Origin: Microgenomates group bacterium Gr01-1014_16
Lineage (GTDB): Bacteria > Patescibacteriota > Microgenomatia > CAZETR01 > Amesbacteraceae
DNA: 64,000 nt
Reading direction: 5' to 3'
Assembly: GCA_007376345.1 (NCBI GenBank)
Contig: VMGA01000002.1
Span: forward strand, 8,309-72,308
The notes under the pieces: model-generated
Told to the model about the DNA's origin: nothing
Databases searched by the model: none
Seen by the model: the letters and a program-made list of their open reading frames with translations, nothing else
Program-made: the position numbers and the translations under genes
Part shown: piece after piece, positions 11,452 to 64,000 of the stretch
Position numbering within the stretch: the stretch's first letter is position 1
Layout: each line of letters begins with the position of its first letter

Positions 11452-11606
11452 TTAATCAGAGTTGTTACCATTTTCCTAGTCACTGGTTCGTTCTCCAACC
11501 TCATAGTCCGATAAATCATTTCCGGTAAAAAACCTTTAAAATACCCTGCTATATCTGATTTTTTAAATTTAATATTTATTTTTTTACGTTTCATAAATTT
11601 ATTATA

Positions 11607-21951: not shown

Positions 21952-21976
21952 CCCCTCTCCTAGACTAGGAGAGGGG
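21952..21976 (+). promoter_or_regulatory. Perfect 10-bp-stem hairpin CCCCTCTCCT-agact-AGGAGAGGGG, whose 3' arm is an SD-like AGGAGA, upstream of a pilin-like gene
   Basis: Read directly from the sequence. An in-frame GTG at 21983, within GGGTGAGGT, lies 7 nt after the hairpin. Confidence 0.6.
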
Positions 21977-21982
21977 ACGGGG

Positions 21983-23926: not shown

Positions 23927-23946
23927 AAATAAATATTTTCCATTTC

Positions 23947-23969
23947 CCCTCTCCTGAATCAGGAGAGGG
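23947..23969 (+). promoter_or_regulatory. Second copy of the hairpin CCCTCTCCT-gaatc-AGGAGAGGG upstream of the next pilin-like gene
   Basis: A 9-bp stem. An in-frame GTG at 23977, within the same GGGTGAGGT context, lies 7 nt after the stem. Same architecture as 21952-21985. Confidence 0.6.
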
Positions 23970-23976
23970 ATCAAGG

Positions 23977-24456
23977 GTGAGGTTCAGGGCGGGTGAGGTA
24001 TGTCGTGGTTTTACATTAATCGAAATCCTCATCTACATGGGTCTTATGGCCGCTTTGATCACCGTTTTGACCAACGTCTTTGTCACAGTTTTGGAAACCC
24101 AGCTCGAATCCTCCTCCGTTTCGGTCGTGGAAATCGACGGCCGCTACGTTTTATCCCGACTGATCTATGACATTCACCGAGCTACCAGTATTACTACCCC
24201 TGCTGTAGCCGGCCAGACTTCGCCCGGTCTGACTTTAAACATTGGCGGCCCCAATCACACTTACACGGTTACCGACGGAGTTCTGTATTTGGACGGTTCT
24301 TCCCGTCTGACAAGTATTGATACTTCCGTTTCCAACCTGTCGTTTACCCGCGTCGGCAACAGCACAGACAACGATACCCTGCGAATTTCCTTTACCTTAA
24401 CTAGCCTCGCCCAATCACAAAATTATAATTCCACCGTTAGTCTGCGTACCAATTAA
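23977..24456 (+). CDS. Prepilin-type minor pilin / pseudopilin
   Basis: From GTG 23977 the N-terminus reads (M)RFRAGEVCRG|FTLIEILIYMGLMAALI. No in-frame ATG precedes the prepilin motif. Confidence 0.55.
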   Translation: MRFRAGEVCRGFTLIEILIYMGLMAALITVLTNVFVTVLETQLESSSVSVVEIDGRYVLSRLIYDIHRATSITTPAVAGQTSPGLTLNIGGPNHTYTVTDGVLYLDGSSRLTSIDTSVSNLSFTRVGNSTDNDTLRISFTLTSLAQSQNYNSTVSLRTN

Positions 24457-29966: not shown

Positions 29967-30372
29967 GGGTCATTAGATATTGTCCCGGGGAAAAAATTTG
30001 GATATCTTTCATCTTTCTGGCCAACACCAACAGATGCTTTTTGTCCAGGGTTACTAATATCTGACACTTTTCTCTCATAGCGCTGGCCAATACATGCGAG
30101 TCGTCGGGATCTAATACTTTACTCTGGTATTTCTTAACCGCTTCTGCCTCCGGTGCCTCTGAAATCAAAATAAATATTTCTTCTATCTTTCTTTCCATTT
30201 CGGATCTACCGAATCCCGCTTTATCCGCATGTCTAGCCACTTCGTTAACGATTAGCTCCGATATCACGCCTTTTATTTCTCCGGCCTTCACCCTTTTTAG
30301 CAACTCTCCCGAAGCCCCACTTGGAGATCTCACTCCGGCCAATATTACCGAGGCGTTGAAAAATACTTTCAT
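29950..30372 (-). CDS. vapC: PIN domain protein (VapC-like toxin)
   Basis: [13 protein letters not shown]...[12 protein letters not shown]...[10 protein letters not shown] contains the conserved acidic PIN residues. It has an ATGA overlap with the upstream antitoxin-like gene and a convergent 17-nt overlap with the lon 3' end. Confidence 0.6.
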
Positions 30373-30629
30373 TTCAGCAATCCTCTTTTTTTCAGCATGT
30401 TACTTTCCTTCTTATCCAGTTCAAAAAATTCCCCCACCTCGGCATCTGTATATCTACGAACCGAATAACCCAAAACAGTTACCGGTTCCAACATCAACCC
30501 TCTTCCCACCCTCTTCACTTTTACAAAACTGTTTGCCCCGAATTTTTCATCCCTTAACCGCCTGGGAATAGTCAACAATCCTCGTGGCTGCATCTTAACG
30601 ATCTCTTCCCAGTCCTGTATTTGTTGCAT
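30369..30629 (-). CDS. AbrB/MazE/SpoVT-type antitoxin (VapB-like)
   Basis: GLLTIPRRLRDEKFGANSFVKVKRVGRGLMLEP is a SpoVT/AbrB swapped-hairpin motif. The start is placed at the ATG 30629; the track TTG start is at 30665. Confidence 0.5.
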   Translation of the reverse strand: MQQIQDWEEIVKMQPRGLLTIPRRLRDEKFGANSFVKVKRVGRGLMLEPVTVLGYSVRRYTDAEVGEFFELDKKESNMLKKRGLLK

Positions 30630-30665
30630 ACATTCGATAATACAGTATTCCCGTATTTCCGTCAA

Positions 30666-34581: not shown

Positions 34582-34854
34582 ATGAACGGACAAACGAACC
34601 TCTCCCGCGTCCAAATTTATATGGAACCAGATCGGTTGATGATGCTGGATCTCATTTCAAATCGAATCAAAATCAACCGTTCCCAAATTATTCGTGACTT
34701 GACCAAACCCATAGCCTTGGCATACGGAAAAGTAGTCGATTTTATGACTTCAACTCCAAAAGGGAAAAATCCTCTCTTAAAGCTATCTGGGATAGAAAAA
34801 AGCAAAACCGGTCACATCAGCGAAAACGTGGACGAAATATATCTCCATGACTAA
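34582..34854 (+). CDS. Ribbon-helix-helix (CopG-like) antitoxin candidate
   Basis: RVQIYMEPDRLMMLDLISNRIKINRSQIIRD is an RHH-like N-terminus. It overlaps the downstream PIN gene by 8 nt. Confidence 0.4.
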   Translation: MNGQTNLSRVQIYMEPDRLMMLDLISNRIKINRSQIIRDLTKPIALAYGKVVDFMTSTPKGKNPLLKLSGIEKSKTGHISENVDEIYLHD

Positions 34855-35269
34855 GACAGTTTTTATAGACACCAGCGCTTGGTTGGCTTTTCTGCTCAGC
34901 GGGGAAAAACAGCATCAAGTCATCGACAAGTACGTCAAGCGTCTTATTTCCCAAAAAGCCAGACTGTTCACCTCGGATTATATCTTGGACGAGACCTGGA
35001 CAAGGTTAGTTACTAATCAGAATTTTTCTTCAGCCAGCTCCTTGCGCCAGATTGTCAAAGAGGCTCATAAAAAAGGACATCTGTCGGTTTTCTTTACTCT
35101 GGAAACATTTTTTGAAGAAACATGGCAAATATTCGAGAAATTCTCCAACCTGAAGTTGTCCTTCACTGACGCTACAATAATTTTCTACTCGCGTAAGTTT
35201 AAGATTGACGAAGTTGTCACTTTGGACGAGGGAATAAAAAAAGCCGGACTCAAGGTCTTTCCCAACTAA
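34847..35269 (+). CDS. vapC: PIN domain protein (VapC-like toxin)
   Basis: VFIDTSAWLAFL...FTSDYILDETWTRL...SFTDATIIFYSRKFKIDEVVTLDEG has the conserved D/E/D/D positions. Confidence 0.6.
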   Translation: MTKTVFIDTSAWLAFLLSGEKQHQVIDKYVKRLISQKARLFTSDYILDETWTRLVTNQNFSSASSLRQIVKEAHKKGHLSVFFTLETFFEETWQIFEKFSNLKLSFTDATIIFYSRKFKIDEVVTLDEGIKKAGLKVFPN

Positions 35270-35284
35270 GGTATACTTATATCA

Positions 35285-35629
35285 ATGTTCGGGTTTTTGT
35301 TTAAGGTAATTATCATGGCCGCGATGTTTGCTGGTGGGGGCTACGCTTATATTAACCGGGACAAATTACCCCAACTCTCCCAATTACCCCAATTAGCCCA
35401 ATTTGCCAAATTACCTAATATAGAAATCAACGCCTCCGAAGCCGGCTCGCGCATCAGCGCCGCCCTGGATTCGATAGTTACCCACCCGGACAAAAACTCG
35501 CCCGTAGTTCTGGGCGTCAAAATCACCAACGAAAGCATCGGCAAACTGGTCGACGTCATCCAGGGTCTCCCTCCCGAACAAGTCAAGCAAATCCAGCAAG
35601 TCATTTGTGCGACACCGTCGGCCCGGTAA
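35285..35629 (+). CDS. Hypothetical membrane-anchored protein
   Basis: A 114-aa ORF with an N-terminal TM segment and the low-complexity [17 protein letters not shown]. Confidence 0.35.
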
Positions 35630-38221: not shown

Positions 38222-38731
38222 ATGCATTATGTCTCGAGGGCTGGAGAAAAGTTAGAGTTTGCCCTGGCCACCTGGCACATTAATGTCACGGGTTTAATCT
38301 GTGCCGATTTGGGCTGTAGTGCGGGAGGATTTACGGACTGCTTGTTACAGCGCGGAGCGGCCAAAGTTTATGCCGTTGACACCGGATATGGTGTTTTGGA
38401 TTGGAAATTAAGAAACAATTCGAGAGTAATTGTCATGGAGCGAACCAACGCCTTGCATGTCAAACTACCCGAATTAGTGGATTTTGTATCTATAGACGTC
38501 GGTTGGACTCCACAGCGGCTGATTTTGCCCGTCGCTAAGACATTGTTAAAGCCCGGCGGCCAAATAATTTCATTAATAAAACCCCACTACGAAGCCAAAA
38601 AAGCCCACCTAACGCCCGACGAGGCGAAAAACATAGCCGACCAATTTGCCCAATTAGGCCAATTAGTCCAATCACCCATTACCGGTCAAAAAGCCGGCAA
38701 CGTGGAGTATCTCTTGCGTATGTTATACTAG
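38222..38731 (+). CDS. tlyA: TlyA family rRNA (cytidine-2'-O)-methyltransferase, lacking the N-terminal S4 domain
   Basis: SRAGEKLEFAL...DLGCSAGGFTDCLLQRGAAKVYAVDTGYGVLDWKLRNNSRV closely matches TlyA/FtsJ-like SAM motifs. Confidence 0.75.
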   Translation: MHYVSRAGEKLEFALATWHINVTGLICADLGCSAGGFTDCLLQRGAAKVYAVDTGYGVLDWKLRNNSRVIVMERTNALHVKLPELVDFVSIDVGWTPQRLILPVAKTLLKPGGQIISLIKPHYEAKKAHLTPDEAKNIADQFAQLGQLVQSPITGQKAGNVEYLLRMLY

Positions 38732-45700: not shown

Positions 45701-46755
45701 TTTGCGGCAATGACGGCCATGATCCCAGAAATGAAATGATGGACGGAGTCAAAATAATCCGCCGCGGTGGCCTGTTCACCGTCTATATATGGGCGTTTTT
45801 ATACTACGTCCTCAAATTCCGCGGCCGCTTCGACGTTATTATCGATTCCGAAAACGGCATTCCCTTTTTCACACCACTTTTCACTAGGCTTCCGGTCTTT
45901 CTTTTAATACATCACGTCCACCAGGATCTCTTTCGTTCAAATCTTTATTTCCCCATGGACAAAATAGCCATGCTTTTAGAAGGCAAACTTATGCCCCTGG
46001 TCTACCGGAATTCCCGAATCATCACCGTTTCCGATTCCTCCCGCAAAGATATTTTGTCTCTAGGCTTTTTCAAATCCGACAATATTACAGTCGTCAATCC
46101 CGGTATCGATCCTTCTATCTTTTACACCTCTCCCAAAACCCGCTATCCTTCGTTTGTCTATCTCGGCCGCATCCGCGCCCAGAAAAATATCGACGTGGCC
46201 ATCCGGGCTTTTGCCTCTGTTGTCAAAAAATATCCCAAAGCCCGGTTCTCCATTGCTGGCTGGGGTGACAAATTAGACGAATTAGCCAAATTAGCCAAAT
46301 CACTCAGACTGGCCAAATCGGTCAAATTCCTAGGCAAAGTCAGCGATGCCGAACGGGTCAAACTTTTAGGAAAATCCTGGGCCATGCTCCAGCCCAGCTC
46401 TTTTGAAGGGTGGGGGATAACGGTTATCGAGGCCAATGCCTGCGGGACTCCGGTAATAGCTTCGAACGTCCCCGGCCTGCGCGACTCCGTCCTCCACGAT
46501 GAATCCGGTATTTTAGTTTCTCTCAAGAACGAATTTGAATTGGCCGAATGTATGAAATTGTTAATTTCCCTTCCGGACTACCGCTCCCGCCTATCCCAAA
46601 ACGCCCTCGCCTGGTCCACCAACTTCAACTGGGACGTCAAATCAGCCGAATTCATCCGCGCCGTCTCAAATCGTAACCAGAAACAGGAGTTAACTATCCC
46701 GCTCGCCAAACCCGGTTTGGCTTATTCGTATGAATCAACTGATCAACATTCTTAA
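42754..46755 (+). CDS. 1333-aa fusion protein: processive GT2-type glycosyltransferase, Wzx/MOP-flippase-like polytopic domain, GT4 (group 1) glycosyltransferase
   Basis: The GT2 part carries the D,D motif VVYDAEDRP, the Q(R/Q)xRW motif NWIRQRSRWIKG, and flanking TM helices. The middle has about 12 TM helices, with GNYALLSLVGKMIYFFGKLVSQFTIPLVSR in the Polysacc_synt/Wzx style. The C-terminus is GT4, with EGWGITVIEANACGTPVIAS (the EX7E region). The reading frame is uninterrupted. Confidence 0.75.
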   Translation: MAQPTVILPRHRRTMLGAGVSHNGREYITHSTLPHHLSAHITLVLWQKIFLLLLLLLLLTGLFFYPWATAIGFIAVLTAVYFADAVFNFILIFKSLHFPPEITFSDIEHRTLNIGHLPTYSILCPLYREARVLPQFVEAISALDWPKAKLDVLLLLEEDDTTTIEVAHSLNLPSYFRTIIVPVSQPKTKPKACNYGLSYVKGEYVVVYDAEDRPEPDQLKKAYLAFQKVPASVTCLQSKLNYYNPRHNLLTRLFTAEYSLWFDVVLPGLQSINTTLPLGGTSNHFRTKILKKLHGWDAFNVTEDCDLGSRLFKAGYTTAIIDSTTYEEANSQLGNWIRQRSRWIKGYLQTFLVHNRHPLKFLRDHGWHALIFQLIVGGKIAFMLINPFLWLMTFAYFTLYSFVGPAIESLYPAPVFYMAAFSAVFGNFLYLYYYMIGCAKRGHWDLIKYVFFIPLYWLFISIAGFKALAQLILRPHYWEKTHHGFHLDRAESSFLRSQIISRFGWVRPLAGHRLTGATLLVASAAAANFFNFLYNAYLGRVLSASDFGLVALMGSLIFIVNLPIGALSGTVSYRASYLIGKFGSTAQAFWSLIRRRSIMVAILCVLVWLVLSPWLAGFFRSPDILPFWLFAPIWTIAFTAAVDRGFLTANLRFFTLAVVILGEALSKFGLAVLFVHLGYPQLVYAAIPLSMVLPLGIGWWVARRTTSPVVLDPSHITYFPRRYFATSILMGLSALGFLSLDVILAKRFLDPVSAGNYALLSLVGKMIYFFGKLVSQFTIPLVSRAEGEGADSQKVFLPIFLLSVFATTAGFVALGPLGHLTVPLLLGAKTIPILPYLTLYSLALALYTMTTTVIDYHQARRHYLFPVTGFFLAIAQVVALSFFHDHLSMLVNVIFALSLFYFLLITGLHFTYDAIIIIFHNLHDLLDLFFLRLNGRRPLPSDKLRILAFNWRDTKHVWAGGAEVYLHEVAKRWVTAGHTVTLFCGNDGHDPRNEMMDGVKIIRRGGLFTVYIWAFLYYVLKFRGRFDVIIDSENGIPFFTPLFTRLPVFLLIHHVHQDLFRSNLYFPMDKIAMLLEGKLMPLVYRNSRIITVSDSSRKDILSLGFFKSDNITVVNPGIDPSIFYTSPKTRYPSFVYLGRIRAQKNIDVAIRAFASVVKKYPKARFSIAGWGDKLDELAKLAKSLRLAKSVKFLGKVSDAERVKLLGKSWAMLQPSSFEGWGITVIEANACGTPVIASNVPGLRDSVLHDESGILVSLKNEFELAECMKLLISLPDYRSRLSQNALAWSTNFNWDVKSAEFIRAVSNRNQKQELTIPLAKPGLAYSYESTDQHS

Positions 46756-50926: not shown

Positions 50927-52456
50927 ATGAAGTATTTTCTATTGATCTTTTCTTTCATCATTCTCACGTTAAGCATCGCTGGGAGATGGGGGAATCCCTC
51001 CATTTCTATGCTAAACGATTCCGCCTCTCCATATACCAATGTCTTCGAGAACTCCTCACCACGGGCCAGATTTGCCCTAATCTATTCAATTCTTGAAAAC
51101 CGCTCTTTAGTATTTTCTTTACCTTTGGCCAAGTTCTCACTGCCTGACTTGGCAGTTCATGATGGTAATTATGTCTCTTTGTTTGCTCCGGGGACATCTT
51201 TTCTAGCACTACCGGGTTATGTAATAGGTAAAACCTTAGGGGCCTCACAGCTTGGTACTTACTCCATAGTCTCGATTTTTGCCATCCTCAATGTTTTTCT
51301 CATTTACCTTTTTCTACGAAATTTAGAGGTCAGCCCTTTAGCTTCTGCCTTAGCCGGTCTAATATTTCTTTTTGGCTCACCAGCATTTGCCTACTCTGTC
51401 ACTCTCTACCAACACCACTTTTCTACTTTTCTCCTCCTTGCAGCCTTACTCCTGGTCCAGCGCAAAACAAACTTTTTATCCTTATCTGTTGTTTGGTTTT
51501 TATCCTCTCTTTCCATTCTCATAGATTATCCCAATCTTTTTCTTATGGCTCCGGTAGCTTTATTTGCCCTGACTCGTTTGATAGACGTAAGCCATCTTAA
51601 AAGCCGATTAAAAATAAGCCTTCGCCCCTGGCATCTATTAACTTTTGTTGCAGTCATCCCTCCGCTTTTGGCGTTTCTGTGGTATAACAACTCAGCCAAT
51701 GGTGGCCTGTTTCGTCTCTCCGGCTCTTTGCGCCGCGTTGAAGCTATTGACCTCTCGGGTCAGCCCACTACCCCACGCCTTCTTGAACAGGGTCAAATTG
51801 AAAATTTTATCCAGTCTAACCCTGACAAAAAGAACACCGTAAATTTCTTCCGTACCCGCCGCCTCCTTGGTGGCTTTTACACTCATTTTATGAGTCTAGA
51901 CCGAGGTTTGATATTTTTTTCTCCAGTATTAGTTTTGTCAATTATTGGGGTCGGGATTCTAAATCAAAAAAGAAACCAACTATTAAACGTTCTTCTAGGA
52001 GTGTTGGGCGCCAATGTCATCATCTATTCCCTTTGGGGTGATCCCTGGGGGGGGTGGGCATTCGGTTCTCGGTACCTCATACCCAGCTACTCTATCCTGG
52101 CCATATTTTTGGGTATTGGTCTAGGACATTTTCATCGCCGTCTTTTAGTAATTTTACCGTTCCTGGTTCTTTCAGTCTACTCAATTGCTGTTAATACTCT
52201 TGGAGCTATAACGACAACCAACAATCCACCTCAAGTGGAAGTTCTGGCACTTGAAAAGGTCACTGGACGAGAGGAAAAGTACACCTGGGAACGAAATTGG
52301 GATTTTCTGATAACCAACGGCTCCAAGTCATTTGTCTTTCAAACTTATGCCAAAAATTATTTGACTGCCCCGCAATACTTTTACATTATCTCATGGGCGA
52401 TTGTCTCCGCGGTAATTTTACTTACCTATCGGCTTTACAGTTATGATAGTCCTTGA
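50927..52456 (+). CDS. Polytopic membrane protein, GT-C fold glycosyltransferase-like (ArnT / PMT / GT39-83-like)
   Basis: A 509-aa ORF with more than 10 TM helices and a periplasmic loop early. No catalytic motif could be assigned by eye. Confidence 0.4.
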   Translation: MKYFLLIFSFIILTLSIAGRWGNPSISMLNDSASPYTNVFENSSPRARFALIYSILENRSLVFSLPLAKFSLPDLAVHDGNYVSLFAPGTSFLALPGYVIGKTLGASQLGTYSIVSIFAILNVFLIYLFLRNLEVSPLASALAGLIFLFGSPAFAYSVTLYQHHFSTFLLLAALLLVQRKTNFLSLSVVWFLSSLSILIDYPNLFLMAPVALFALTRLIDVSHLKSRLKISLRPWHLLTFVAVIPPLLAFLWYNNSANGGLFRLSGSLRRVEAIDLSGQPTTPRLLEQGQIENFIQSNPDKKNTVNFFRTRRLLGGFYTHFMSLDRGLIFFSPVLVLSIIGVGILNQKRNQLLNVLLGVLGANVIIYSLWGDPWGGWAFGSRYLIPSYSILAIFLGIGLGHFHRRLLVILPFLVLSVYSIAVNTLGAITTTNNPPQVEVLALEKVTGREEKYTWERNWDFLITNGSKSFVFQTYAKNYLTAPQYFYIISWAIVSAVILLTYRLYSYDSP

Positions 52457-54041
52457 TATCCCCATTACTCCCATTCGAAATTTTTTCAACAAGTACGTTT
52501 TTTGGTTGATCACCATAACTCTGACGATTTTCTCGATCTTTTATTTTCTCAATTATTATTTCAACGGTCTGGGTCTGGCCTATAACGACGCCCGGTCGCA
52601 CCTCGATATTGGCAGAAGGGTTGTTGAGAGTCTCAAACCGGGACTGGCCCAACTGGGTTCCGTCTGGTTGCCCCTCACCCACTTGCTCATGGTTCCTACC
52701 GTTTGGAATGACTTTATGTGGCATTCCGGTCTGGCCGGAGCCATCCAGTCTATGGCCGGCTTTGTCGCCGCCGGCCTCCTCATTTATAAAATTCTGGAAA
52801 AACTAAGAGTTGGAACTCTTGGTCGTCTGGTTGGAGTTGCTGTCTTTGTCGCCAACCTCAACGTTTTGTATTTGCAATCTACGGCCATGACCGAACTGCC
52901 GCTTTTGGCCACTATGACCGCCGGCTGTTATTACCTCATCAAATGGCACCAAACCGACAATATTTTAGACGTCATCAAATCCGCCTTCTGGATCATGCTC
53001 TCTTCACTCATCCGTTACGACGGCTGGTTTTTATTTTTAGCCGCCGCCGGTTTGATTTTTGTCCGCCAGCTAAAGAAAAATGGCTACAAAACTGCCGAAG
53101 GCGCCATGATCCTATTCGCCACCCTGGCCGGCTTCGGCATCGCCCTCTGGTTTCTCTGGAACCAGTTAATTTTCAAAGATGCTCTCTACTTTGCCCTTGG
53201 TCCCTTTTCCGCCCGCGCCCAGCAGATCCAGTTAAGCAACGCCGGCAACCTGCCCAGCAAGTACAACCTCTTCCTGTCCACTAAAATTTATCTGTACGCC
53301 CTGTTTTACAACTCCTATACCCTGCCTGTCTTTTTGGCCCTGGCCGGCTTGGCTGTTCTCCTCTGGGACCGCCGCTTGCACTTTGACCTGCGTCTCTCTA
53401 CTTTGTCACTGCTCACGCCGCTTGTTTTCAACATTATTGCCATGTTTTTTGGTTTCTCCGTACTTTTTGTCCAGGGCATTTCCGGAGACACCTGGTTCAA
53501 CATCCGCTACGGCATCATGCTTGCCCCCGCGGTAGCGGTTTTTATAGGTATATTGATCGACCGGGTCAAATCCTTGCGTCCGGTGATTATCGGCCTTTTA
53601 GCCTTCGTTTTATTCTTCGCTTTTGCCAACCAGGACGCGGTCACAATTGACGACGCCCGTGTGGGATCCAGCCAGAAAAACGTTTCCGAAGTCGCTTCAT
53701 ATCTGGCCAAAAACGCCGCAGACCAGCCCGGCTTTATTCTCATCTCCGTCGCCTCTCATGACGCCATTATTTTCTCATCCGGTCTGCCCATATCCCGCTT
53801 TATCCACGAAGGCACCGGCGCCTACTGGACAGCGGCTACAACCGCTCCCGACCGCTGGGCCCGCTGGATCATCATGCGTACATATGACGACAACGATTTA
53901 GCCTGGAAATTCGTCTCCAAATCACCGGGCTTCAGGTTCTATTCTCTAGTGAATCATTATCCCTTTGCGGACGTCTACGAAATAGATCCGTCTCTGGTCG
54001 GCCAACTCCACACCGAACCGGTTTTCAAGAACCAGAAGTAA
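52443..54041 (+). CDS. Second polytopic GT-C-like membrane glycosyltransferase candidate
   Basis: A 532-aa ORF with more than 10 TM helices and the loop motif YNDARSHLDIGRR. The C-terminal PVFKNQK is encoded by a 20-nt stretch that is duplicated at 54729-54748. Confidence 0.4.
   Translation: MIVLDIPITPIRNFFNKYVFWLITITLTIFSIFYFLNYYFNGLGLAYNDARSHLDIGRRVVESLKPGLAQLGSVWLPLTHLLMVPTVWNDFMWHSGLAGAIQSMAGFVAAGLLIYKILEKLRVGTLGRLVGVAVFVANLNVLYLQSTAMTELPLLATMTAGCYYLIKWHQTDNILDVIKSAFWIMLSSLIRYDGWFLFLAAAGLIFVRQLKKNGYKTAEGAMILFATLAGFGIALWFLWNQLIFKDALYFALGPFSARAQQIQLSNAGNLPSKYNLFLSTKIYLYALFYNSYTLPVFLALAGLAVLLWDRRLHFDLRLSTLSLLTPLVFNIIAMFFGFSVLFVQGISGDTWFNIRYGIMLAPAVAVFIGILIDRVKSLRPVIIGLLAFVLFFAFANQDAVTIDDARVGSSQKNVSEVASYLAKNAADQPGFILISVASHDAIIFSSGLPISRFIHEGTGAYWTAATTAPDRWARWIIMRTYDDNDLAWKFVSKSPGFRFYSLVNHYPFADVYEIDPSLVGQLHTEPVFKNQK
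54021..54040. repeat. Direct repeat copy 1, gttttcaagaaccagaagta. Its partner is at 54729-54748
   Basis: 18 of 20 nt are identical between the copies. Each copy encodes a C-terminal PVFKNQK plus stop. The copies flank the HEPN/MNT cassette. Confidence 0.75.
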
Positions 54042-54063
54042 CTGACCGTGGTATACTCAACTC

Positions 54064-54447
54064 ATGAAAGACGAAGCTAAAATCTGGTTGGAGCAAGCAG
54101 AAGACAGTCTAAAAGATGCCGAATATCTTTATACAGGATCCCGCTACTCAATGGCCGTTTACTGCTGCCATCAGGCCCTCGAAAAAATCCTTAAAGCTTG
54201 CATAATCCAGTTTGCTAACCAGCTTCCTCCAAAATCGCACAATCTCGACGCTCTTGCCCGTCAAACCACGCTTGAGTTTCCTGATAGCTGGCTGGAAGAC
54301 CTAGCCGAAATCACTCACCATTTTTGGCGCGTCCGTTATCCGGACTTCCAGAAATTTGTTTACACCTCCAAAGAATCAGTCAAGCCTACCTACGATAAAA
54401 CTAAAGAGGTTTTTATATGGATAAAACAACACTTACCACAGATATAA
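54064..54447 (+). CDS. HEPN domain protein (HepT-like toxin candidate)
   Basis: MAVYCCHQALEKILKACII...PKSHNLDAL is the HEPN pattern (QA.EK.LKA....H.L). An Rx4-6H-type RVRYP...H region is also present. Confidence 0.6.
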   Translation: MKDEAKIWLEQAEDSLKDAEYLYTGSRYSMAVYCCHQALEKILKACIIQFANQLPPKSHNLDALARQTTLEFPDSWLEDLAEITHHFWRVRYPDFQKFVYTSKESVKPTYDKTKEVFIWIKQHLPQI

Positions 54448-54749
54448 AAAAATACTTGGACAAGCTGGGAAAATTTGTTTCTATTGACGAGGCTATTATG
54501 TTCGGTTCTTCGTCAACTGGTACGGCTGGAGGTGACAGCGATATTGACCTACTGATCCTTTCCCGTGATTTTTCCAAATATGACCCGGATACAAGACTTA
54601 AAATTATCTACCGGGCCAGTGTGGGATTTCCTTACGACCTACACGCCTACGGCGTAACTCCGGAGGAATATGCTTCCGCTTCTTCTCTCACAACTTTGGG
54701 GGCCATTAGATCCACAAATCCTACACCCGTCTTCAAAAACCAGAAGTAG
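54417..54749 (+). CDS. Minimal nucleotidyltransferase (MntA-like antitoxin candidate)
   Basis: IMFGSSSTGTAGGDSDIDLLIL is the GS...SDIDL NTase motif. It overlaps the HEPN gene by 31 nt. Confidence 0.6.
   Translation: MDKTTLTTDIKKYLDKLGKFVSIDEAIMFGSSSTGTAGGDSDIDLLILSRDFSKYDPDTRLKIIYRASVGFPYDLHAYGVTPEEYASASSLTTLGAIRSTNPTPVFKNQK
54729..54748. repeat. Direct repeat copy 2, gtcttcaaaaaccagaagta
   Basis: See copy 1. Confidence 0.75.
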
Positions 54750-54758
54750 GTGGAATTC

Positions 54759-56012
54759 ATGAAAAAATTTCTTTCGTCACTGATAATTCTATTTCTTGTT
54801 TCTGTTACTGTTACTGTGCCCGCCGAAGCCGCAGGCGAAGGCCGGGCTGTTTGGTGGCAGTTCCAATCCATCGACACTATGAAATATTCCCGGGACATAG
54901 CCCGTGAAAAACTCAAGGATTCCTCTTTTGACACCTCTATTGATTTGCAGGTCAAAAACATCGCCGCCACCGGCGCCACTCATGTAGCCATTGCCACTCC
55001 ATATGACGAAGAATTTATTCCTTTTTTGACCCGCTGGGTAAACGCCGCCCGCAAACACAAGCTCAACATCTGGTTCCGCGGTAATTTTTCCGGTTGGGAA
55101 AACTGGTTTGACTATCCGGAAATTTCTCGGGAAGAGCATCTGGCCAAAACCAAAACCTTTATTACCAAAAATGCCGGATTATTTCAAAACGGCGACGTTT
55201 TCACAGCCTGCCCGGAGTGTGAAAATGGCGGACCGGGCGATCCCCGCCAGACAGGAGATGTAGAAGGTCATCGTCAATTTCTTATAGACGAATTTGTGAC
55301 CACCCAGCAGCTTTTTCGTAACATGGGGAAAAATGTCCGGTCTAATTATTTCTCTATGAACGGCGACATGGCCAAAGCCATCATGGACAAAGAAACTACC
55401 ACTGCCCTCGGCGGTATCGTGACTATCGATCATTACGTCGCTTCACCCCAAAAATTGGTCAAAGATATCCAAAATCTTGCCCATCAGTCCGGAGGTAAAA
55501 TAATACTAGGTGAATTCGGTGCCCCGATTCCGGATATTCACGGCTCAATGTCCCAGGACCAGCAGGCTAAATGGCTGAATGACGCTTTCAAGCTTTTAGT
55601 TTCCACTCCGGAATTAGTCGGCATTAATTATTGGACCAACGTCGGCGGGTCCACCCAGCTCTGGACAGAAAACTATGAGCCCAAAAAAGCCGTTGATGTC
55701 GTTACTTTCTATTTCTTTCCCAAAACCGCCCGAGGCATCGTGAATGACGTTTTCGGTTCCACCATAAAAAACGCACAAGTTTCTTCATCACATAAGACTG
55801 TTTATGCCAACTCAGCCGGAAATTTTCAACTACCATATATTGACTCCTCCGATCCTCTTTCCGTGTCTGCCAAGAATTATATCTCCAAAGAATACAATAA
55901 TTACTCAAGTGATAAAAACATCGAAGTTTACTTATCTCCTATCCGAAAAGGAATACTTTTTAGACTCAAACTCTTGACTTATAGGCTTCTTGGTCGTAAA
56001 ATACATGGTTAG
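54759..56012 (+). CDS. Secreted TIM-barrel glycoside-hydrolase-like protein (GH5-like, tentative)
   Basis: A signal peptide (MKKFLSSLIILFLVSVTVTVPAEA), and IILGEFGAP (a GExG nucleophile-like region) with CPECENGGP upstream. The assignment is by pattern only. Confidence 0.35.
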   Translation: MKKFLSSLIILFLVSVTVTVPAEAAGEGRAVWWQFQSIDTMKYSRDIAREKLKDSSFDTSIDLQVKNIAATGATHVAIATPYDEEFIPFLTRWVNAARKHKLNIWFRGNFSGWENWFDYPEISREEHLAKTKTFITKNAGLFQNGDVFTACPECENGGPGDPRQTGDVEGHRQFLIDEFVTTQQLFRNMGKNVRSNYFSMNGDMAKAIMDKETTTALGGIVTIDHYVASPQKLVKDIQNLAHQSGGKIILGEFGAPIPDIHGSMSQDQQAKWLNDAFKLLVSTPELVGINYWTNVGGSTQLWTENYEPKKAVDVVTFYFFPKTARGIVNDVFGSTIKNAQVSSSHKTVYANSAGNFQLPYIDSSDPLSVSAKNYISKEYNNYSSDKNIEVYLSPIRKGILFRLKLLTYRLLGRKIHG

Positions 56013-58526: not shown

Positions 58527-59798
58527 ATGACTACATTTAGAAAACAAATAGTAGCTGCAGTTTCCGCCTCTGTCATGTTTTTAAGCATGGCCGCCCCGGT
58601 TTTTGCAGAAACTACCATAGTAATTTCCGGCAATGGAGCCAATTCGGATAGCAAAAGTGATGTCCAGTTTACTGGCGACACGACTGTTACCCAAACCAAC
58701 CAGGCTTCCATTTCCAACAACATTGACGCAGACGCTGATACCGGCAAAAACGACGCCAACCAGAATACGGGAGGCTCGGTTTTGGTCAAAACCGGTGACG
58801 CGACAACTGGTGTCAGTGTAGAAAACGTGGTCAACAGCAACCAGGCTTCTGTAGATTGTTGCACCGCTGGCGATACGGATATCGAAATCTCCGGCAACGG
58901 AGCTGATACGAAAAACGATGTCAAGCTCAAAAACGACGCTGACGTCTCTCTGTACCAGACCAACGAGGCTGATATTTACAACCGGGTTGATGCCGACGCC
59001 GATACGGGCAAAAACGATGCCAACCAGAATACGGGTGGCGATGTTGAAGTCAGGACAGGTGACGCCTCTACTTGGGTTGGGGTATCCAATACCGCCAACG
59101 CCAACTGGGCACAAATCGGAGACGGTGGCCAGGGCTCACTTTCCGCAAGGATTTTGGGCAATGGTTTCAATTCGGACAACAAAATAGATTTGGATTTGGA
59201 CAATGACACCACTTTGGTGCAAACCAATTTGGCGGACATCACCAACTACATCTATGCGGACGCTGATACAGGCAAAAACGACGCCAACCAGAATACGGGT
59301 GGCAGCGTTCTAGTCGATACTGGTGATGCCGAAACCGGTGTAGAAGTCGACAATTTGGTCAACTTCAACTGGGCCGATGTTGATTGCGGTGGCTGCGTCT
59401 TGGACCTTTTGGCCAAGGTAGCCGGCAACGGTGCTGATACGAAAAACGAGATCAAGCTCAAGCTTGATAACGATTTGGAAGTTTATCAGACCAACGTATG
59501 CGGTGACGAGGGACGGCCCTGGTTCGAACTTTGGGATTACCAAGGTTATGAAGAGGATTGTTCAACTCGCGTTGACGCAGACGCTGATACCGGCTCTAAC
59601 GACGCCAACCAAAACACTGGCGATCCGGAAGGGGATCCTTCCGTCTTAACCGGCGATTCTGCCTCGTTCGTCGAGGTGAGTAATTCCGGCAACGTCAACT
59701 CTTATGGAGTTGGTGGAGGAGAGTGGCCCGACTTTGATTTTGAGTTCAACCTTTCGTTGAACTTAAATGACTTGTTGAGCTTGCTCGACTTGATCTAA
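58527..59798 (+). CDS. Secreted protein built from four ~70-aa Asp-rich repeats
   Basis: A signal peptide (MTTFRKQIVAAVSASVMFLSMAAPVFA), then four repeats of the form GNGA(N/D)(S/T)..N....QTN.A.I.N..DADADTGKNDANQNTGG.V.V.TGDA.T.V.V.N. Confidence 0.6.
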   Translation: MTTFRKQIVAAVSASVMFLSMAAPVFAETTIVISGNGANSDSKSDVQFTGDTTVTQTNQASISNNIDADADTGKNDANQNTGGSVLVKTGDATTGVSVENVVNSNQASVDCCTAGDTDIEISGNGADTKNDVKLKNDADVSLYQTNEADIYNRVDADADTGKNDANQNTGGDVEVRTGDASTWVGVSNTANANWAQIGDGGQGSLSARILGNGFNSDNKIDLDLDNDTTLVQTNLADITNYIYADADTGKNDANQNTGGSVLVDTGDAETGVEVDNLVNFNWADVDCGGCVLDLLAKVAGNGADTKNEIKLKLDNDLEVYQTNVCGDEGRPWFELWDYQGYEEDCSTRVDADADTGSNDANQNTGDPEGDPSVLTGDSASFVEVSNSGNVNSYGVGGGEWPDFDFEFNLSLNLNDLLSLLDLI

Positions 59799-59864
59799 GG
59801 CTATATCTTGTGGGGTGGATCCGCTAGCACTTCAGCGGGACACCCTGCAAGTATAGAAAAAAAT

Positions 59865-61988
59865 ATGAAACTAAAAAAACTATTATCAATAATTGCCCTG
59901 ACGGCACTGTTTACAGTCCAGATTCTGCCTGTCTCTGCCCAGGAGGCTCCGCCCCAACCGCCTACTGCCCCCACCGCCCCGGTTGCGCCTACAGCCCCGC
60001 CCGCTCCTACTGCTCCTACCGCTCCTACTCCACCCCCGCCGCCCCCGCCACCTTTGCCCGCCGAAGCCTTGGCGGAGGAGGGTCCTTCCCCCACCGAAGT
60101 CCCCACTGCTTCTACCCAGTCAGAAGAGCCAACGAGCCTTCCCGAGGAAACTAGTGGCCAAACCCAGGACGGAAATTCAGGAGACACCAATATTACAACC
60201 GGCGACGCTAACAACTCCGGTGTAGTAGTGAGCGAGGCCAACAATAATTTATTGGCCGACTCCGGCCCCGGCATCCTGGAAGTGGTCAATGAGGGTAACG
60301 GTGCCGAGTCCCAAAATACCGGTTCAGTCACCGTAGCCGAGACGAACACTTCGGTTCAACAAAATGAAGCCGAGGTCCAAAATAATCTCGATTTAGGCAG
60401 CGTTACCGGCCAAAATTCAGCCTCTTACACTACCGGCGGCGACGCCAATATCAAAACCGGCGACGCCAACGTTTCCGGAACTGCCATTACCGCCGTAAAC
60501 ACCAATGTGGACGCCGTTTCCGTCTCCGAATTCAATATCGCCGACAACCACGTCGGAGACTATATTTTGGATTTTGCCGCCAACTGTGTCTCGGGTTGCA
60601 GCTCGGGTGATGCCGTCGCCAAAAATTCCGGCAATGGAGCCAACTCCGTCAACGACGCCGATATTTCCCAAGACGTAAATAACCTCGACTTCCAGTCCAA
60701 CTCGGCCACCGTCGGCAACTCCATGATCCTAAATGCCGACTCCGGCGCCAACCAGGCCAACTACCAAACCGGCGGGGATTCCAATATTACAACCGGTGAC
60801 GCCAACGTTTCCGCGTCCTCGCTGACTTTGGCCAATAACAACTTGAGTGGCAACGTCATTTACGGCGTAGTCAATATTTATGGGGACTTGATAGGGGACA
60901 TTATCTTTCCCGAGGAAGCCCTGGCCGGCTGCTGCGCTTCTTCGGCTACAGCTGCCAATATAGGAAACGGAGCTGATTCGACCAACACCGCCAACATCGA
61001 TTCCACTCTCACCGACTCCACCATCCAGAGTAACGACGTGGTTATCGAAAACACCCTCGTTCTGGACGCCGATACCGGTGCCAATAAGACTTCCGGCAAT
61101 ACCGGCGGCGACTCCGCCATTTCTACGGGCGATTCCAACGTTACCGCCCAGGTCTTAAACGTCGCCAATTCCAACATTTCCGGCGGTACCTGGTGGCTGG
61201 TTTTGGTCAACGAAGCCGGCCAGTGGATAGGCCGCATTTTAGGCGCACCCGTTGGCGCCAATTATGCCGGCTCGGCTGACACCCAATTCACAGTCGGCCA
61301 GTCCGGAGAAATTACCGCCGTCAACTCCGGCAACGGTTCCGGCTCCACCAATGATGCCAATGTCTCCCAAACCACGACTAACACCACGGTCCAGACAAAT
61401 TCCGCTACCGTCCAAAACGACCTGAAATTAACTGCCAACACCGGCGGTAATTCTGCTTCTTACAATACCAACGGCGATTCCAATATCCAAACCGGCGACG
61501 CCACTATCATGGCCAATATCGTCAACTTTGTGAACAACAATGTCACCGGCGGCGGCAAATTATTTGTCACAGTCGTCAACGTCTTTGGCAGCTGGCTAGG
61601 TGACTTTGTCACTCCCGGCAGCCATAAAACACCTCCAGTCGCAGAAGTTCCCGCACCCGCCCCAGAACCAGCTGTTGGCGGGGCCGAAATTCCTGCCGTC
61701 CAATCTTCTACATCTAATCCCTCTGATTCCTCTAATTCATCTAACTCCTCTCCTTCCGTTGCTTCCGTATCAGTTCAATCCCGCGTCATCCGCCGCCGCG
61801 TCGCCGGCCTTTCCACCTCTTTCCCTTCAGTCGAATCTCCAGTCCTCGCGTCCGAATCCGTTGTTTCTCCCGACCCCGGTCCCGCCCGCAATAAAGTTCG
61901 CATCAACCTCGCCTGGCTCCTTTTAGGCCTCCCCTTACTCCTGCCCGTTTACCTCCGCTTCCGCCGTCCCCGCATCGTCCAGGTTTGA
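59865..61988 (+). CDS. Secreted paralogous repeat protein with a Pro-rich linker, four ~75-aa GNGA.S...QTN/QNN...TGG..NI.TGDANV repeats and a C-terminal hydrophobic plus basic tail
   Basis: The start is at MKLKKLLSIIALTALFTV. The linker is QEAPPQPPTAPTAPVAPTAPPAPTAPTAPTPPPPPPPP. The repeats are separated by VVN..G.W.G.I segments. The C-terminus is LAWLLLGLPLLLPVYLRFRRPRIVQV. Confidence 0.6.
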   Translation: MKLKKLLSIIALTALFTVQILPVSAQEAPPQPPTAPTAPVAPTAPPAPTAPTAPTPPPPPPPPLPAEALAEEGPSPTEVPTASTQSEEPTSLPEETSGQTQDGNSGDTNITTGDANNSGVVVSEANNNLLADSGPGILEVVNEGNGAESQNTGSVTVAETNTSVQQNEAEVQNNLDLGSVTGQNSASYTTGGDANIKTGDANVSGTAITAVNTNVDAVSVSEFNIADNHVGDYILDFAANCVSGCSSGDAVAKNSGNGANSVNDADISQDVNNLDFQSNSATVGNSMILNADSGANQANYQTGGDSNITTGDANVSASSLTLANNNLSGNVIYGVVNIYGDLIGDIIFPEEALAGCCASSATAANIGNGADSTNTANIDSTLTDSTIQSNDVVIENTLVLDADTGANKTSGNTGGDSAISTGDSNVTAQVLNVANSNISGGTWWLVLVNEAGQWIGRILGAPVGANYAGSADTQFTVGQSGEITAVNSGNGSGSTNDANVSQTTTNTTVQTNSATVQNDLKLTANTGGNSASYNTNGDSNIQTGDATIMANIVNFVNNNVTGGGKLFVTVVNVFGSWLGDFVTPGSHKTPPVAEVPAPAPEPAVGGAEIPAVQSSTSNPSDSSNSSNSSPSVASVSVQSRVIRRRVAGLSTSFPSVESPVLASESVVSPDPGPARNKVRINLAWLLLGLPLLLPVYLRFRRPRIVQV

Positions 61989-62061: not shown

Positions 62062-63426
62062 ATGCGCCGTCCTGCCCTCGGTATTCTGATTATTGTCATC
62101 GGAACTGTCTCGATTCTCCGCCTGACATCGGCCTTTTTCTCCGACACCGAAACCTCCTCCGACAACACTCTCCAAGCCGGCGAACTTGATTTAAAGATCG
62201 ATAATACAAGCTATTACAACGAGGCCTCCAGTTCAGCCACCACCTGGCCATCGGACAATCTTCCCGGCCATCTTTTCTTCGATTTTAATGATCTAAAGCC
62301 CGGCGACCGGGGCGAAGACACTATTAGCCTGTCAGTCCAAAATCCCGCCTGGGCCTGCATGAAAATCAAGATCACCCAAAACACCGACGAAAGTTGTACC
62401 GAACCGGAAATCATCAACGATCCTAGTTGTCCTGACACCGGCGACCTGGCTCAACAACTCAACTTCGTCTTCTGGGCCGACGACGGCGACAACATCCATC
62501 AACTTAATGAACCCGTTATCAAAGAGGGGACTGCATCAGCAATTTTTAATGACGATACCTGGACGTTGGCTGATTCATTGTTCAGTGTCTGGCCCACCCC
62601 TGGGCCTATTCCCGCCAGCGAGACCCGTTACATAGGTAAGTACTGGTGTTTCGGCATACTATCTCCGTCAGCCAATCCTCCAGGCTTCTCTTGTGACGGC
62701 CAAAATCTAAATAACTCCGCCCAGTCGGACAAGGTTATGGCCGATGTGGAATTTACCGCCATCCAATCCCGCCACAACCCCGGTTTTTTATGCAATGGCA
62801 GTATCACTCCCACCCCTCCCATCATCTCTCCCACTATCACCCCCACTCCAACTCCCTTAGCCTGTAACCAAGCCGACGTTATGCTCGTTCTCGATCGCTC
62901 CGGCAGTATCAACTCAACTGAATTGGCTCAGCTCAAAACCGCCTCCAAAGCCTTTGTGGACGACCTCGGCCTGTCTTCGTCCGGCATCCACGCTGGCATG
63001 TCCAGTTTTGCCACCTCCGGCACTCTTAACCACATTCTCTCGTCCAACTCAATCACCATCAAAGCCGCCATCGACCTGCTTGTTTCGGGTGGGTTTACCA
63101 ATCTCAAATCAGGCATTGACATAGCAGCCGGCGAGTTAGCCGGAGTTAACGACCGCCCCGACGGTTCCTCGCCGGATAAAATGATTGTGATAACCGACGG
63201 CCACCCCAACCGTCCCCTGCCCGAATCCACCGCCGATGACGTTGCTGCTACTTCCGCCGATGCGGCCCGCGCCGCCGGCTCCGAAATCTTTGTCGTGGGC
63301 GTCGGCTCCGACGTGGACGCAACATATCTCCAAAACGAAATTGCCGACGACGCCGGCCACTACTTCCCTATTTCAAATTACAGCGACCTGCAAACCGCGT
63401 TACAAAATCTCGACCTATGCGATTAA
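62062..63426 (+). CDS. TasA/camelysin-like (SipW-cognate signal peptide) protein fused to a C-terminal von Willebrand factor A domain
   Basis: The N-terminus LRLTSAFFSDTETSSDNTLQAGELDLK is the SipW-cognate-class signal / peptidase M73-like pattern AFFSDTE...N.f.aG.LdL. The C-terminus DVMLVLDRSGSI is a VWA MIDAS DxSxS motif, with further MIDAS residues downstream (TDG...). Confidence 0.6.
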   Translation: MRRPALGILIIVIGTVSILRLTSAFFSDTETSSDNTLQAGELDLKIDNTSYYNEASSSATTWPSDNLPGHLFFDFNDLKPGDRGEDTISLSVQNPAWACMKIKITQNTDESCTEPEIINDPSCPDTGDLAQQLNFVFWADDGDNIHQLNEPVIKEGTASAIFNDDTWTLADSLFSVWPTPGPIPASETRYIGKYWCFGILSPSANPPGFSCDGQNLNNSAQSDKVMADVEFTAIQSRHNPGFLCNGSITPTPPIISPTITPTPTPLACNQADVMLVLDRSGSINSTELAQLKTASKAFVDDLGLSSSGIHAGMSSFATSGTLNHILSSNSITIKAAIDLLVSGGFTNLKSGIDIAAGELAGVNDRPDGSSPDKMIVITDGHPNRPLPESTADDVAATSADAARAAGSEIFVVGVGSDVDATYLQNEIADDAGHYFPISNYSDLQTALQNLDLCD

Positions 63427-63496
63427 TTAAATTATTAAATTATTGAACATTGATTATTGAACATTGATTATTAAAGAGAGAGGGGGTGAATAACGA

Positions 63497-64000
63497 ATGA
63501 AGAAAATATTACTAGGCTTATTAGTCACCGGAGCTGTCGGCGGAGTGGCATTTTATGCCACCAACGCCTTCTTCTCCGACACCGAAACATCAACGGGAAA
63601 CACCTTGCAAGCTGGTGCAATCGATCTCAAAGTAGATAACACTTGTTACTACAATGGGCAGGCATGTACTCAAGGCCCTGATGATAGATTCTACTGGGGA
63701 GGACTACCCAATCATCCCAGCCCAACACCAGCCACAAATCTCTGTTCATGTACCTGGAAATCTAAAAATCTTGAAGAAGGCGATCTATTTTTTGATATTG
63801 AAGATATCAAACCAGGAGACTGGGAAGAGGACACAATCAGCCTAACAGTTGAAAATAACGAGGCTTGGCTTTGTGCAGACGTTCATTTAACAAGTGATGA
63901 CGACGTAACCTGCACCGAACCCGAATCTGAGACAGGTCTTGCCGACCCCGAGTGTAGCGCTCCAACGCCTTCGCCAGGTACGGGCGAACTTGCCGATAGA
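63497..64000 (+). CDS. Second TasA/camelysin-like protein, 3' end truncated by the window edge
   Basis: Hand translation from ATG 63497 gives MKKILLGLLVTGAVGGVAFYATNAFFSDTETSTGNTLQAGAIDLKVDNTCYYNG.... The SD gagagggggtga lies 8 nt upstream. There is no stop inside the window. Confidence 0.55.
   Translation, partial: MKKILLGLLVTGAVGGVAFYATNAFFSDTETSTGNTLQAGAIDLKVDNTCYYNGQACTQGPDDRFYWGGLPNHPSPTPATNLCSCTWKSKNLEEGDLFFDIEDIKPGDWEEDTISLTVENNEAWLCADVHLTSDDDVTCTEPESETGLADPECSAPTPSPGTGELADR

Follow-up and report, generated by a model that had tools for sequence, protein, structure and literature searches.

The stretch of DNA analyzed here, referred to as the window, comprises 64,000 nucleotides (nt) of contig VMGA01000002.1 from Microgenomates group bacterium Gr01-1014_16, and unless another contig is named, positions are those of the whole window. 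In its last quarter, two copies of a short direct repeat enclose only two genes, one for a HEPN-domain protein (PF05168, E=1.9e-23, 83.3 bits with a curated cut-off of 22) and one for a minimal nucleotidyltransferase, or MNT (PF01909, E=1e-10, 42.3 bits with a curated cut-off of 21); we call the enclosed element the cassette (Table 1). The two open reading frames (ORFs) are co-oriented, with HEPN first, and overlap by 31 nt, and the MNT protein contains the nucleotidyltransferase (NTase) motif G-S-x10-D-x-D (GSSSTGTAGGDSDID). By adjacency, orientation and family scores, the pair is predicted to be a HEPN-MNT toxin–antitoxin (TA) module. An initial annotation of this DNA had described a segment of roughly 690 bp holding exactly these two genes; the gene content stands, but the extent needs correction, as the MNT ORF enters the second repeat and the DNA homologous to other cassettes covers ∼680 nt (∼54046–54726).

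Table 1. Coordinates of the HEPN-MNT locus, of other TA-type genes in the window and of related loci on other contigs
Feature	Position	Strand	Remarks
Target gene, 532-aa multi-pass membrane protein, putative glycosyltransferase	52443–54041	+	ORF; native C-terminus ...PVFKNQK-stop
Repeat copy 1	54018–54041	+	Last 7 codons and TAA of target gene; functional tail
Cassette left end	54042–54063	+	Spacer CTGA (4 nt), CCG-TGGTATACT, putative extended -10 box 54049–54057, 6 nt to HEPN ATG
HEPN-domain gene, toxin component (putative), 127 aa	54064–54447	+	PF05168
MNT gene, antitoxin component (putative), 110 aa	54417–54749	+	PF01909; native last 4–5 codons replaced by copy 2
Repeat copy 2	54726–54749	+	Displaced target tail, in frame with MNT; supplies MNT stop TAG
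Downstream gene, 417 aa	54759–56012	+	No family match; directly behind target gene in relatives
Fic cassette	10822–11634	-	48-aa ORF 11594–11448 and Fic 11451–10822, behind ABC-transporter gene 13400–11607
Further TA-type genes	1977–2642, 3839–4906, 5498–6520, 29950–30665, 34582–35269		In the window
Leaderless (putative) TA arrays behind tRNA-Trp	L095 1262–4405; L090 417–2173; L115 151–1933
L116			28-nt repeat derived from 5' end of downstream gene
L150			Terminator-containing repeat
L142			31-nt gene tail repeat
L117	3393–3498 and 4323–4428		106-nt structured repeat, flanks HEPN-MNT pair

The 20-mers at 54021–54040 and 54729–54748 are identical at 18 of 20 positions, and the ORFs in Table 1 bear out the earlier statement that the first ends the membrane-protein gene and the second the MNT gene. 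Read in codon register, the repeat is 24 nt long and matches at 20 of 24 positions; the upstream copy reads CCG GTT TTC AAG AAC CAG AAG TAA and the downstream copy CCC GTC TTC AAA AAC CAG AAG TAG, both encode PVFKNQK-stop, the four differences all being either synonymous third-position changes or a change from one stop codon to another. Could such a pair reflect no insertion event at all, just chance similarity or a C-terminal motif common to both proteins? By our own arithmetic, a 64-kb window should contain ∼0.3 pairs of 20-mers that lie within 3 kb of each other and have at most two mismatches, so a single such pair anywhere in the window is unremarkable; however, both copies of this one end in frame at the stops of consecutive co-oriented ORFs, and the window has just one other pair of this kind. 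A scan for pairs matching at 18 or more of 20 positions and lying 100–3000 bp apart (internally repetitive genes at 58–63 kb set aside) passed only three: the HEPN-MNT pair, a pair at a Fic gene and a simple GTTACT tract. When the scan was relaxed, shuffled sequence gave 2–7 matches of score 13 or higher anywhere, and in the window the Fic pair scored highest and the HEPN-MNT pair joint second, these two alone having both copies within 30 nt of stop codons; the same two are the only same-strand ORF pairs within 5 kb with a common C-terminal peptide. As for a common motif, 80 orthologues of the target protein carry the tail and 35 aligned MNT homologues do not. A chance origin of the repeat pair is excluded, and an account without any insertion keeps a vanishingly small probability.

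The source is a metagenome-assembled genome, and short repeats can cause mis-joins, which raises the question of whether unrelated contigs were joined at the repeat. Against this, Logan contig SRR8863434 is 100% identical over 2.7 kb across both junctions, and contig ERZ27284380 from the European Nucleotide Archive (ENA), which belongs to a different assembly, runs colinear through both junctions and differs by one silent single-nucleotide polymorphism at 54088. Because these two further assemblies are colinear over both junctions, the cassette structure is not an assembly artefact, and an assembly chimera is hardly credible.

To which gene does the tail belong, and what does the site look like without the cassette? 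An orthologue scan with one genome per species returned 80 Microgenomates/Patescibacteria loci, with target proteins that are 56–72% identical to that of the window and nearly all of which align to its last residue; their C-termini read ...T[EK]PV[FL]GKQK-stop, several being exactly PVFKNQK-stop. All 80 loci have a single copy of the tail, and none has a HEPN or MNT gene between the target and downstream genes. At most of these loci the orthologue of the downstream gene begins -12 to +150 nt from the target gene, and in relatives the target stop often overlaps the downstream ATG (ATGA). In the window, repeat copy 2 occupies this native position of the tail ahead of the downstream gene and overlaps its Shine–Dalgarno sequence, AGGTGG (54748–54753). 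The tail is thus native to the upstream gene, and the empty site has one tail where the window has two; an empty-site junction would read target tail followed by GTGGAATTCATG. The comparison with relatives that the initial annotation had proposed therefore did reveal empty sites, and its caveat that repeats might be absent from insertion-free sites does not apply, as relatives carry one copy there. The GC content also changes along the locus, from ∼0.51–0.55 in the 3' part of the target gene to ∼0.41–0.47 across the cassette. All of these empty-site comparisons are between species (≤72% protein identity): an exact-protein look-up of the target gene gave no match to the same insertion or to a near-identical empty site, and searches with the downstream gene and with MNT returned only the same insertion. 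Larger gaps at 14 related loci were considered as hidden insertions and rejected, since they contain ordinary glycosyltransferase or oxidoreductase genes and no tail repeat. With regard to the target protein itself, which had been called a GT-C membrane protein, its multi-pass membrane character holds and the GT-C label stays tentative; Pfam gives no match, and the NCBIfam model NF047440, of a putative glycosyltransferase family, gives E=2e-4, a weak hint far below its cut-off. Additionally, the peptide LLTYRL is encoded near the C-termini of the ORFs at 50927–52456 and 54750–56012 (window 52414–52431 and 55966–55983, with seven synonymous nt differences); as an older tail duplication it was rejected, as relatives do not share it between both genes and the downstream tail looks native, and it is probably a coincidence.

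The MNT gene shows where the cassette ends. Among 66 MNT relatives found, those at 70–84% identity are 106–107 aa long and end ...LGAIRSTNPPAIQI-stop (IRSTNPPAIQI-stop) or ...AIK/AVK-stop, and the window MNT ends ...LGAIRSTNPT-PVFKNQK-stop. Homology (∼75%) to the DNA of cassettes in seven other contigs runs from 54046 and ends at ∼54721–54737; the right junction therefore lies inside the last 4–5 codons of MNT, which is a chimera using the codons and stop of the displaced tail. Since MNT homologues are without this tail, a homologous C-terminal domain common to the two proteins, the other caveat raised earlier, does not explain the repeat. Because relatives have empty sites and a native MNT C-terminus, the cassette is a true insertion; such insertions create chimeric protein C-termini, as this locus shows, and the altered MNT C-terminus might matter for toxin or antitoxin activity. 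Three MNT homologues with unusual C-termini (P0029, P0032 and P0058) were tried as further cases and rejected, as they have no flanking repeats.

The left end of the homology with six other cassettes is at 54046, and these cassettes share a conserved TGGTATACT motif; in all contexts the left end is constant, consisting of C[CA][GT]-TGGTATACT, six bases and ATG. We infer that this motif is an extended -10 box driving a leaderless transcript. A consensus promoter scan, which needs a -35-like as well as a -10 hexamer, did not call the box at the cassette left end. Both cassettes of the window, i.e. this one and the Fic cassette described below, open with a -10 box exactly 6 nt before the first ATG (54049–54066, TGGTATACT; 11609–11592 on the minus strand, TATAAT), and the same -10 design in relatives suggests that leaderless transcripts may be a trait of the family. 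What does a constant left end mean? It may simply be the start of functional sequence, i.e. of the promoter, or the mark of an end-specific enzyme. No terminal inverted repeats, palindromes or hairpin were found at the cassette ends.

The Fic cassette has the same architecture, as the initial annotation had recognized. The ABC-transporter gene ends ...LFTLQAKSYQ-stop (TGA) and is followed by TATAAT, AAATTT and the ATG of the 48-aa ORF, which Fic overlaps by ATGA; Fic in turn ends ...ESFKN-LQAKSYR-stop. The repeat, GGTAACTTTTGGCCTGGAGG, is identical at 20 of 20 positions between 10827–10846 and 11612–11631 and has an extent of ∼20–25 nt. Because 21 Fic relatives (55–66% identity) end a few residues after ...ALSESLxK, the window Fic is complete and takes its last codons and stop from the duplicated tail. 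The insertion is thus confirmed, with the amendment that the duplicated tail, in the orientation of the cassette, is that of the minus-strand ABC transporter (...LQAKSYQ-stop) and not only that of a FemAB-like gene. The copy at 10827–10846 is also the 3' end of this convergent FemAB-like gene (9951–10853), and the repeat covers most of the overlap of the two convergent genes, one of which would have been truncated without the duplication.

Relatives of the HEPN-MNT cassette on other contigs extend the pattern. For example, an unrelated Logan contig, L094, has a 74%-identical cassette behind a response-regulator gene (PF00072), with the same 4-nt spacer between upstream stop and cassette as in the window; the last 22 codons and stop of the response regulator (69 nt) recur directly after MNT, the repeat starting at the TGA that is the MNT stop, so that the right junction is at this stop. 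Here, too, all differences between the copies (7/7) are silent, and nothing downstream in L094 would constrain the second tail copy. On eight further contigs (L083, L090, L092, L093, L095, L096, L113 and L115), cassettes stand in arrays of small TA units (AbiE, Fic, HEPN-MNT), each unit with its own -10 box and with a ∼46-nt repeat, AAATTTGAGCGTAATAGGTTCGAATACTTTCCATCCAGGGCTGCAAAAT, between units. The L095 array begins at a tRNA-Trp gene, whose 3' half matches the array repeat at CCAGGTTCGAAT (12/12) and also in the trailer CTGCAAAAT. Such an array behind tRNA-Trp, once more at a gene 3' end, is where the family usually resides. The array repeat also encodes the usual MNT end (...Q I stop), because AAATTTGAGCGTA precedes the repeat even where there is no MNT upstream. 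All three settings (window, L094, tRNA-Trp arrays) thus show a cassette that lacks its own stop and lies between copies of a gene 3' end, with the MNT stop coming from the repeat. The ∼46-nt repeat is absent from the window. It was also considered as an attC-like hairpin or a known RNA and rejected; its folding z-scores (0.2–1.1) are no better than those of shuffled sequence, it has no Rfam match, and it aligns with the tRNA-Trp 3' half. In several copies of the array repeat, a GC-rich hairpin is inserted inside the repeat. A TCCAGG motif common to the response-regulator tail, the ABC tail and tRNA-Trp was discarded, being absent from the target tail of the window and from other repeats, and a viral-contig scan for the cassette gave no relatives.

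Looking more broadly, 12 of 32 non-redundant HEPN-MNT loci have flanking direct repeats (score ≥15), versus 0.8% in 128 cross-locus control comparisons. The insertion pattern does recur, as the initial annotation had expected, within the same family; this 12-locus set is heterogeneous (see, for example, L116, L142 and L150 in Table 1), and part of it may consist of integron-like loci or of loci that fall between repeats by chance. In L117, the only difference between the two repeat copies is that the 6-nt centre of a 30-nt palindrome is inverted (GTGCGC vs GCGCAC). Another locus, L109 (2122–7213), has a 47%-identical cassette and three copies of a 60–69-codon gene end, all in intact frames and with 78% and 71% protein identity; the copies bracket HicAB and HEPN-MNT between the N-half and the C-half of a Hint/PT-HINT gene, each cassette being followed by another intact-frame copy of the last 60–69 codons of the N-half. 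This may be a polymorphic-toxin-type locus.

How did the repeats arise? One answer is that each was made on the spot, by an insertion with long, variable target duplication in which staggered breaks of 20–70 nt are filled in, or a replication template switch re-enters upstream of the break; the two copies would then be identical at first. Some primary event of this kind is needed in any model. At the Fic site, where the repeat is 20/20 identical, only an overlap-duplicating event leaves both convergent genes intact, and at the HEPN-MNT site the target stop overlaps the next start in relatives, so that the tail is doubly used there too. The published pattern for restriction-modification genes is alike in having no mobility gene, variable repeat length and gene fusion at the junction, in mostly naturally competent hosts. 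However, the differences between copies are all silent, four of four in the window and seven of seven in L094, whereas a redundant copy in decay should gain mostly non-silent changes, and the second copy in L094 is the one with no constraint from downstream. In a simulation that placed the same number of random substitutions in each repeat, the chance that all are silent was ∼5e-4 for the window (0.01 with transitions only) and ∼1e-5 for L094 (4e-4 with transitions only). Silent divergence between copies is roughly 0.3–0.5 per silent site, at which an unconstrained redundant copy should carry many non-silent changes, and none is present. The silent-only differences thus disfavor decay of a transposase-type duplication and favor two recombined alleles of the tail. 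The claim of an insertion at a gene 3' end with duplication of the last ∼20 nt accordingly divides: the insertion stands, on the strength of the empty sites and the MNT end, and a simple duplication in place probably does not, given the silent-only differences at both the window site and L094. Overall, we regard duplication on the spot as an improbable full account of the locus.

Most simply read, these differences arose while each copy served as a functional tail in a lineage of its own, and only later did the two come together. A minimal HEPN-MNT cassette, consisting of a putative -10 box, a probably leaderless HEPN gene and an MNT gene without its own last codons and stop, has been inserted 4 nt behind the target stop; the upstream tail copy keeps the target gene intact, and the downstream copy is fused in frame to MNT. 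The two tails would be two alleles, one resident and one that arrived with the cassette from a relative already carrying it behind the same gene, a proposal to which we give slightly less than even confidence. By way of its repeats, a repeat-bounded cassette could be excised as a loop or amplified, and the resulting circular or permuted DNA would have a single tail copy; the circle or tandem junction of this DNA would read ...AATCCTACACC[C/G]GT[C/T]TTCAA[A/G]AACCAGAAGTAACTGACCGTGGTATACT; a related cell could take up this DNA; and reciprocal (Campbell-type) recombination with the chromosomal tail would then produce tail-cassette-tail, with the allelic differences displayed between the copies. 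Such a cycle would be the life cycle proposed for restriction-modification units with long target duplication, plus one hop between lineages. It accounts for the silent-only differences, for the absent mobility gene and for the restriction of each variant to one target. A single reciprocal exchange also predicts differences across the whole repeat, and those observed do reach all the way to the stop codon. Had one flank been replaced by another allele later, this would not be expected, since the homology does not continue into the cassette. The creation of the first repeat would have set its length and the position of the right junction; both vary, the lengths being 24, ∼25 and 69 nt, and this variability argues against a transposase with fixed stagger. 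The two-allele model does not account for the first repeat-creating event; the joining could be the work of host RecA or of another recombinase.

Several points weigh against this model. Our searches found no donor allele, near-identical empty site, circle junction or tandem form, and as the nearest empty sites are only 72% protein-identical, the silent variants are not assignable to resident or incoming DNA. Homologous exchange of the RecA type would here have to work with 24 nt, toward the bottom of its range. An earlier insertion behind the same gene, in a relative, must also be assumed, and with three or more different target genes there would have been several of these. The identical Fic repeat is without allelic signal, and the constant left end of the cassette could point to an end-specific enzyme. 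Finally, L109, which may lend the two-allele reading a little support, is located within a Hint/PT-HINT gene and may represent something else.

Might a dedicated recombinase be at work instead? Searches of the cassette, of 40 other ORFs of the window and of ten ORFs of L095 found no transposase, integrase, reverse transcriptase or integron integrase, so that the distant recombinase, retron or integron-like feature for which the initial annotation advised looking did not turn up in the 64-kb window or in the L095 ORFs scanned; there is also no integrase within 8 kb of the arrays. A tyrosine or serine integrase encoded elsewhere could act on the cassette as an integrase-less element bounded by attachment (att) sites, or the cassette could be the addictive remnant of a decayed island; an att site borne by the element would contain a surrogate 3' end of the target gene. 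Insertion at a gene 3' end, with the target preserved by a surrogate tail, is the classical signature of integrases, the same cassette family stands in tRNA-Trp arrays with tRNA-3'-half-like repeats, as in tandem accretion, and silent-only differences fit an element-borne tail kept functional by selection. Yet an integrase is missing from the scanned ORFs, and because one and the same cassette occupies at least three unrelated targets, integrases of several specificities would be required. Att arms have no place to fit, since each repeat directly adjoins either the promoter or MNT coding sequence; moreover, islands decaying independently would not end up with identical boundaries. We consider an integrase acting in trans, or a decayed island, unlikely, and somewhat more so than duplication on the spot; the two-allele model, on-the-spot duplication and a trans-acting integrase are not mutually exclusive.

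We further entertain the possibility, for now a speculative one, that Microgenomates harbor a family of recombinase-less TA minicassettes that move as genuine mobile elements into gene 3' ends (tRNA-Trp and protein genes), carrying a copy of the target tail, borrowing its stop and integrating by host recombination on 24–70 nt or by an enzyme not yet recognized as a recombinase.

The initial annotation had taken the mechanism to be an uncharacterized one. The pattern has, however, been described for restriction-modification genes, and 3'-end integration with a surrogate tail is classical for integrative elements. Insertion with long, variable target duplication was reported for restriction-modification genes (Nobusato 2000, Gene 259:99; Furuta, Abe & Kobayashi 2010, PMC2853133), as a small addictive module with no linked mobility gene, occasional gene fusion and a mechanism that is unknown (PMC2853133). 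Our locus is like these in having no linked mobility gene, repeats that are present as one copy at the related empty site, variable repeat length and gene fusion at the junction. It is unlike them in its cargo, which is HEPN/MNT and Fic, and in its host, a bacterium of the Candidate Phyla Radiation (CPR); additionally, the window repeat is a coding tail that ends at a stop and supplies the stop of the last cassette gene. The published working criterion of >30 bp exceeds the 24 nt of the window and the 20–25 nt of the Fic site, and the homologous L094 cassette has 69 nt. Silent-only differences between copies are not something that we saw reported for restriction-modification insertions in the portions of the paper that we read (PMC2853133).

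Integrative elements insert into the 3' ends of tRNA and protein genes with a surrogate 3' end, and their integrase-less derivatives are known as cis-mobilizable elements, or CIMEs (Guédon et al. 2017, PMC5704250). Likenesses to these are the direct repeats at a gene 3' end, the replacement tail that keeps the target intact while the old tail is displaced downstream, and, in relatives, the tandem arrays at tRNA-Trp; differences are the small size of the cassette, 0.7 kb, in which att arms would not fit, the failure to find an integrase nearby and the several unrelated targets. IS1630 of Mycoplasma, an insertion sequence (IS), makes variable target duplications of 19–26 bp (cited in PMC2853133), a range that the window repeat shares; unlike IS1630, our cassette has no transposase, no terminal inverted repeats and non-identical copies, and the 69 nt of L094 fall outside the range. 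More generally, DNA transposons and IS elements are not what we see here, with no transposase, no inverted repeat to pair the ends, lengths of 24, ∼25 and 69 nt, and copies that are non-identical. Integron cassettes are similar in being small, often TA-bearing and arrayed with repeats between them, and the stop codon of an integron cassette ORF can lie in the flanking repeat. They differ in that our repeats are not imperfect palindromes, no integron integrase was found (window, L095) and each cassette has its own predicted promoter. As to cargo, HEPN-MNT modules of the HepT/MntA type are known, e.g. Shewanella SO_3166/SO_3165 (PMC4621449), with which the pair in the window shares overlapping HEPN and minimal nucleotidyltransferase ORFs and the NTase motif; we list as differences the gene order, HEPN first, and the MNT C-terminus that is chimeric with the tail of a host gene.

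In the literature searched, which was incomplete, we found no description of such an insertion for TA cassettes. New here are the type II TA cargo, the CPR host, and a coding tail that ends exactly at a stop and supplies the stop of the last cassette gene; also new are the silent-only copies and a single cassette family that links the tails of protein genes with tRNA-Trp arrays. How TA and restriction-modification modules move without a mobility gene is an old open question, and this locus provides a sequence-defined case, with a left end known to within a few nt, a right junction known to within a few codons, and empty sites in relatives. The silent-only tails are a clue to recombination between alleles rather than cut-and-fill duplication. 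If this is true, small defense and addiction modules in CPR bacteria could spread between relatives by short homology to conserved gene ends alone. CPR bacteria are thought to rely on DNA uptake.

The window contains other genes and sequences of interest. TA-type genes are unusually abundant in it, even beyond the two cassettes; the additional ones (Table 1) are AbiEii, two further Fic-domain genes (one with a MarR-type helix-turn-helix) and two PIN genes with small partners; no tail repeats were found at the AbiEii, the two Fic or the two PIN cassettes. The PIN pair at 29950–30665 sits between Lon, with a 17-nt convergent overlap, and BipA/TypA, with zero spacer. Elsewhere, a repeated hairpin, CCCCTCTCCT-N5-AGGAGAGGG, followed by a Shine–Dalgarno-like GGGTGAGGT, occurs at 21952–21989 and 23946–23983, in each case just upstream of a pilus/secretion-cluster gene (starts at 22001 and 24001); it may be a regulatory or terminator element. 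The gene from 22001 has an N-terminus that looks prepilin-like by eye, and Pfam gives only an LVIVD repeat; the gene from 24001 lies within an ORF (23923–24456) with an N_methyl prepilin motif. Tracts with 9-nt periodicity, CCAATTAGC / CCAATTACC, are found inside or near ORF ends at 35362–35429, 38641–38690 and 46269–46318. Finally, the large ORFs at 58527–61988 and 62062–63654 have internal repeats of 264 nt and ∼333 nt, and two neighboring genes have an 89-nt stretch in common with 72% identity; they look like repetitive surface-protein genes.

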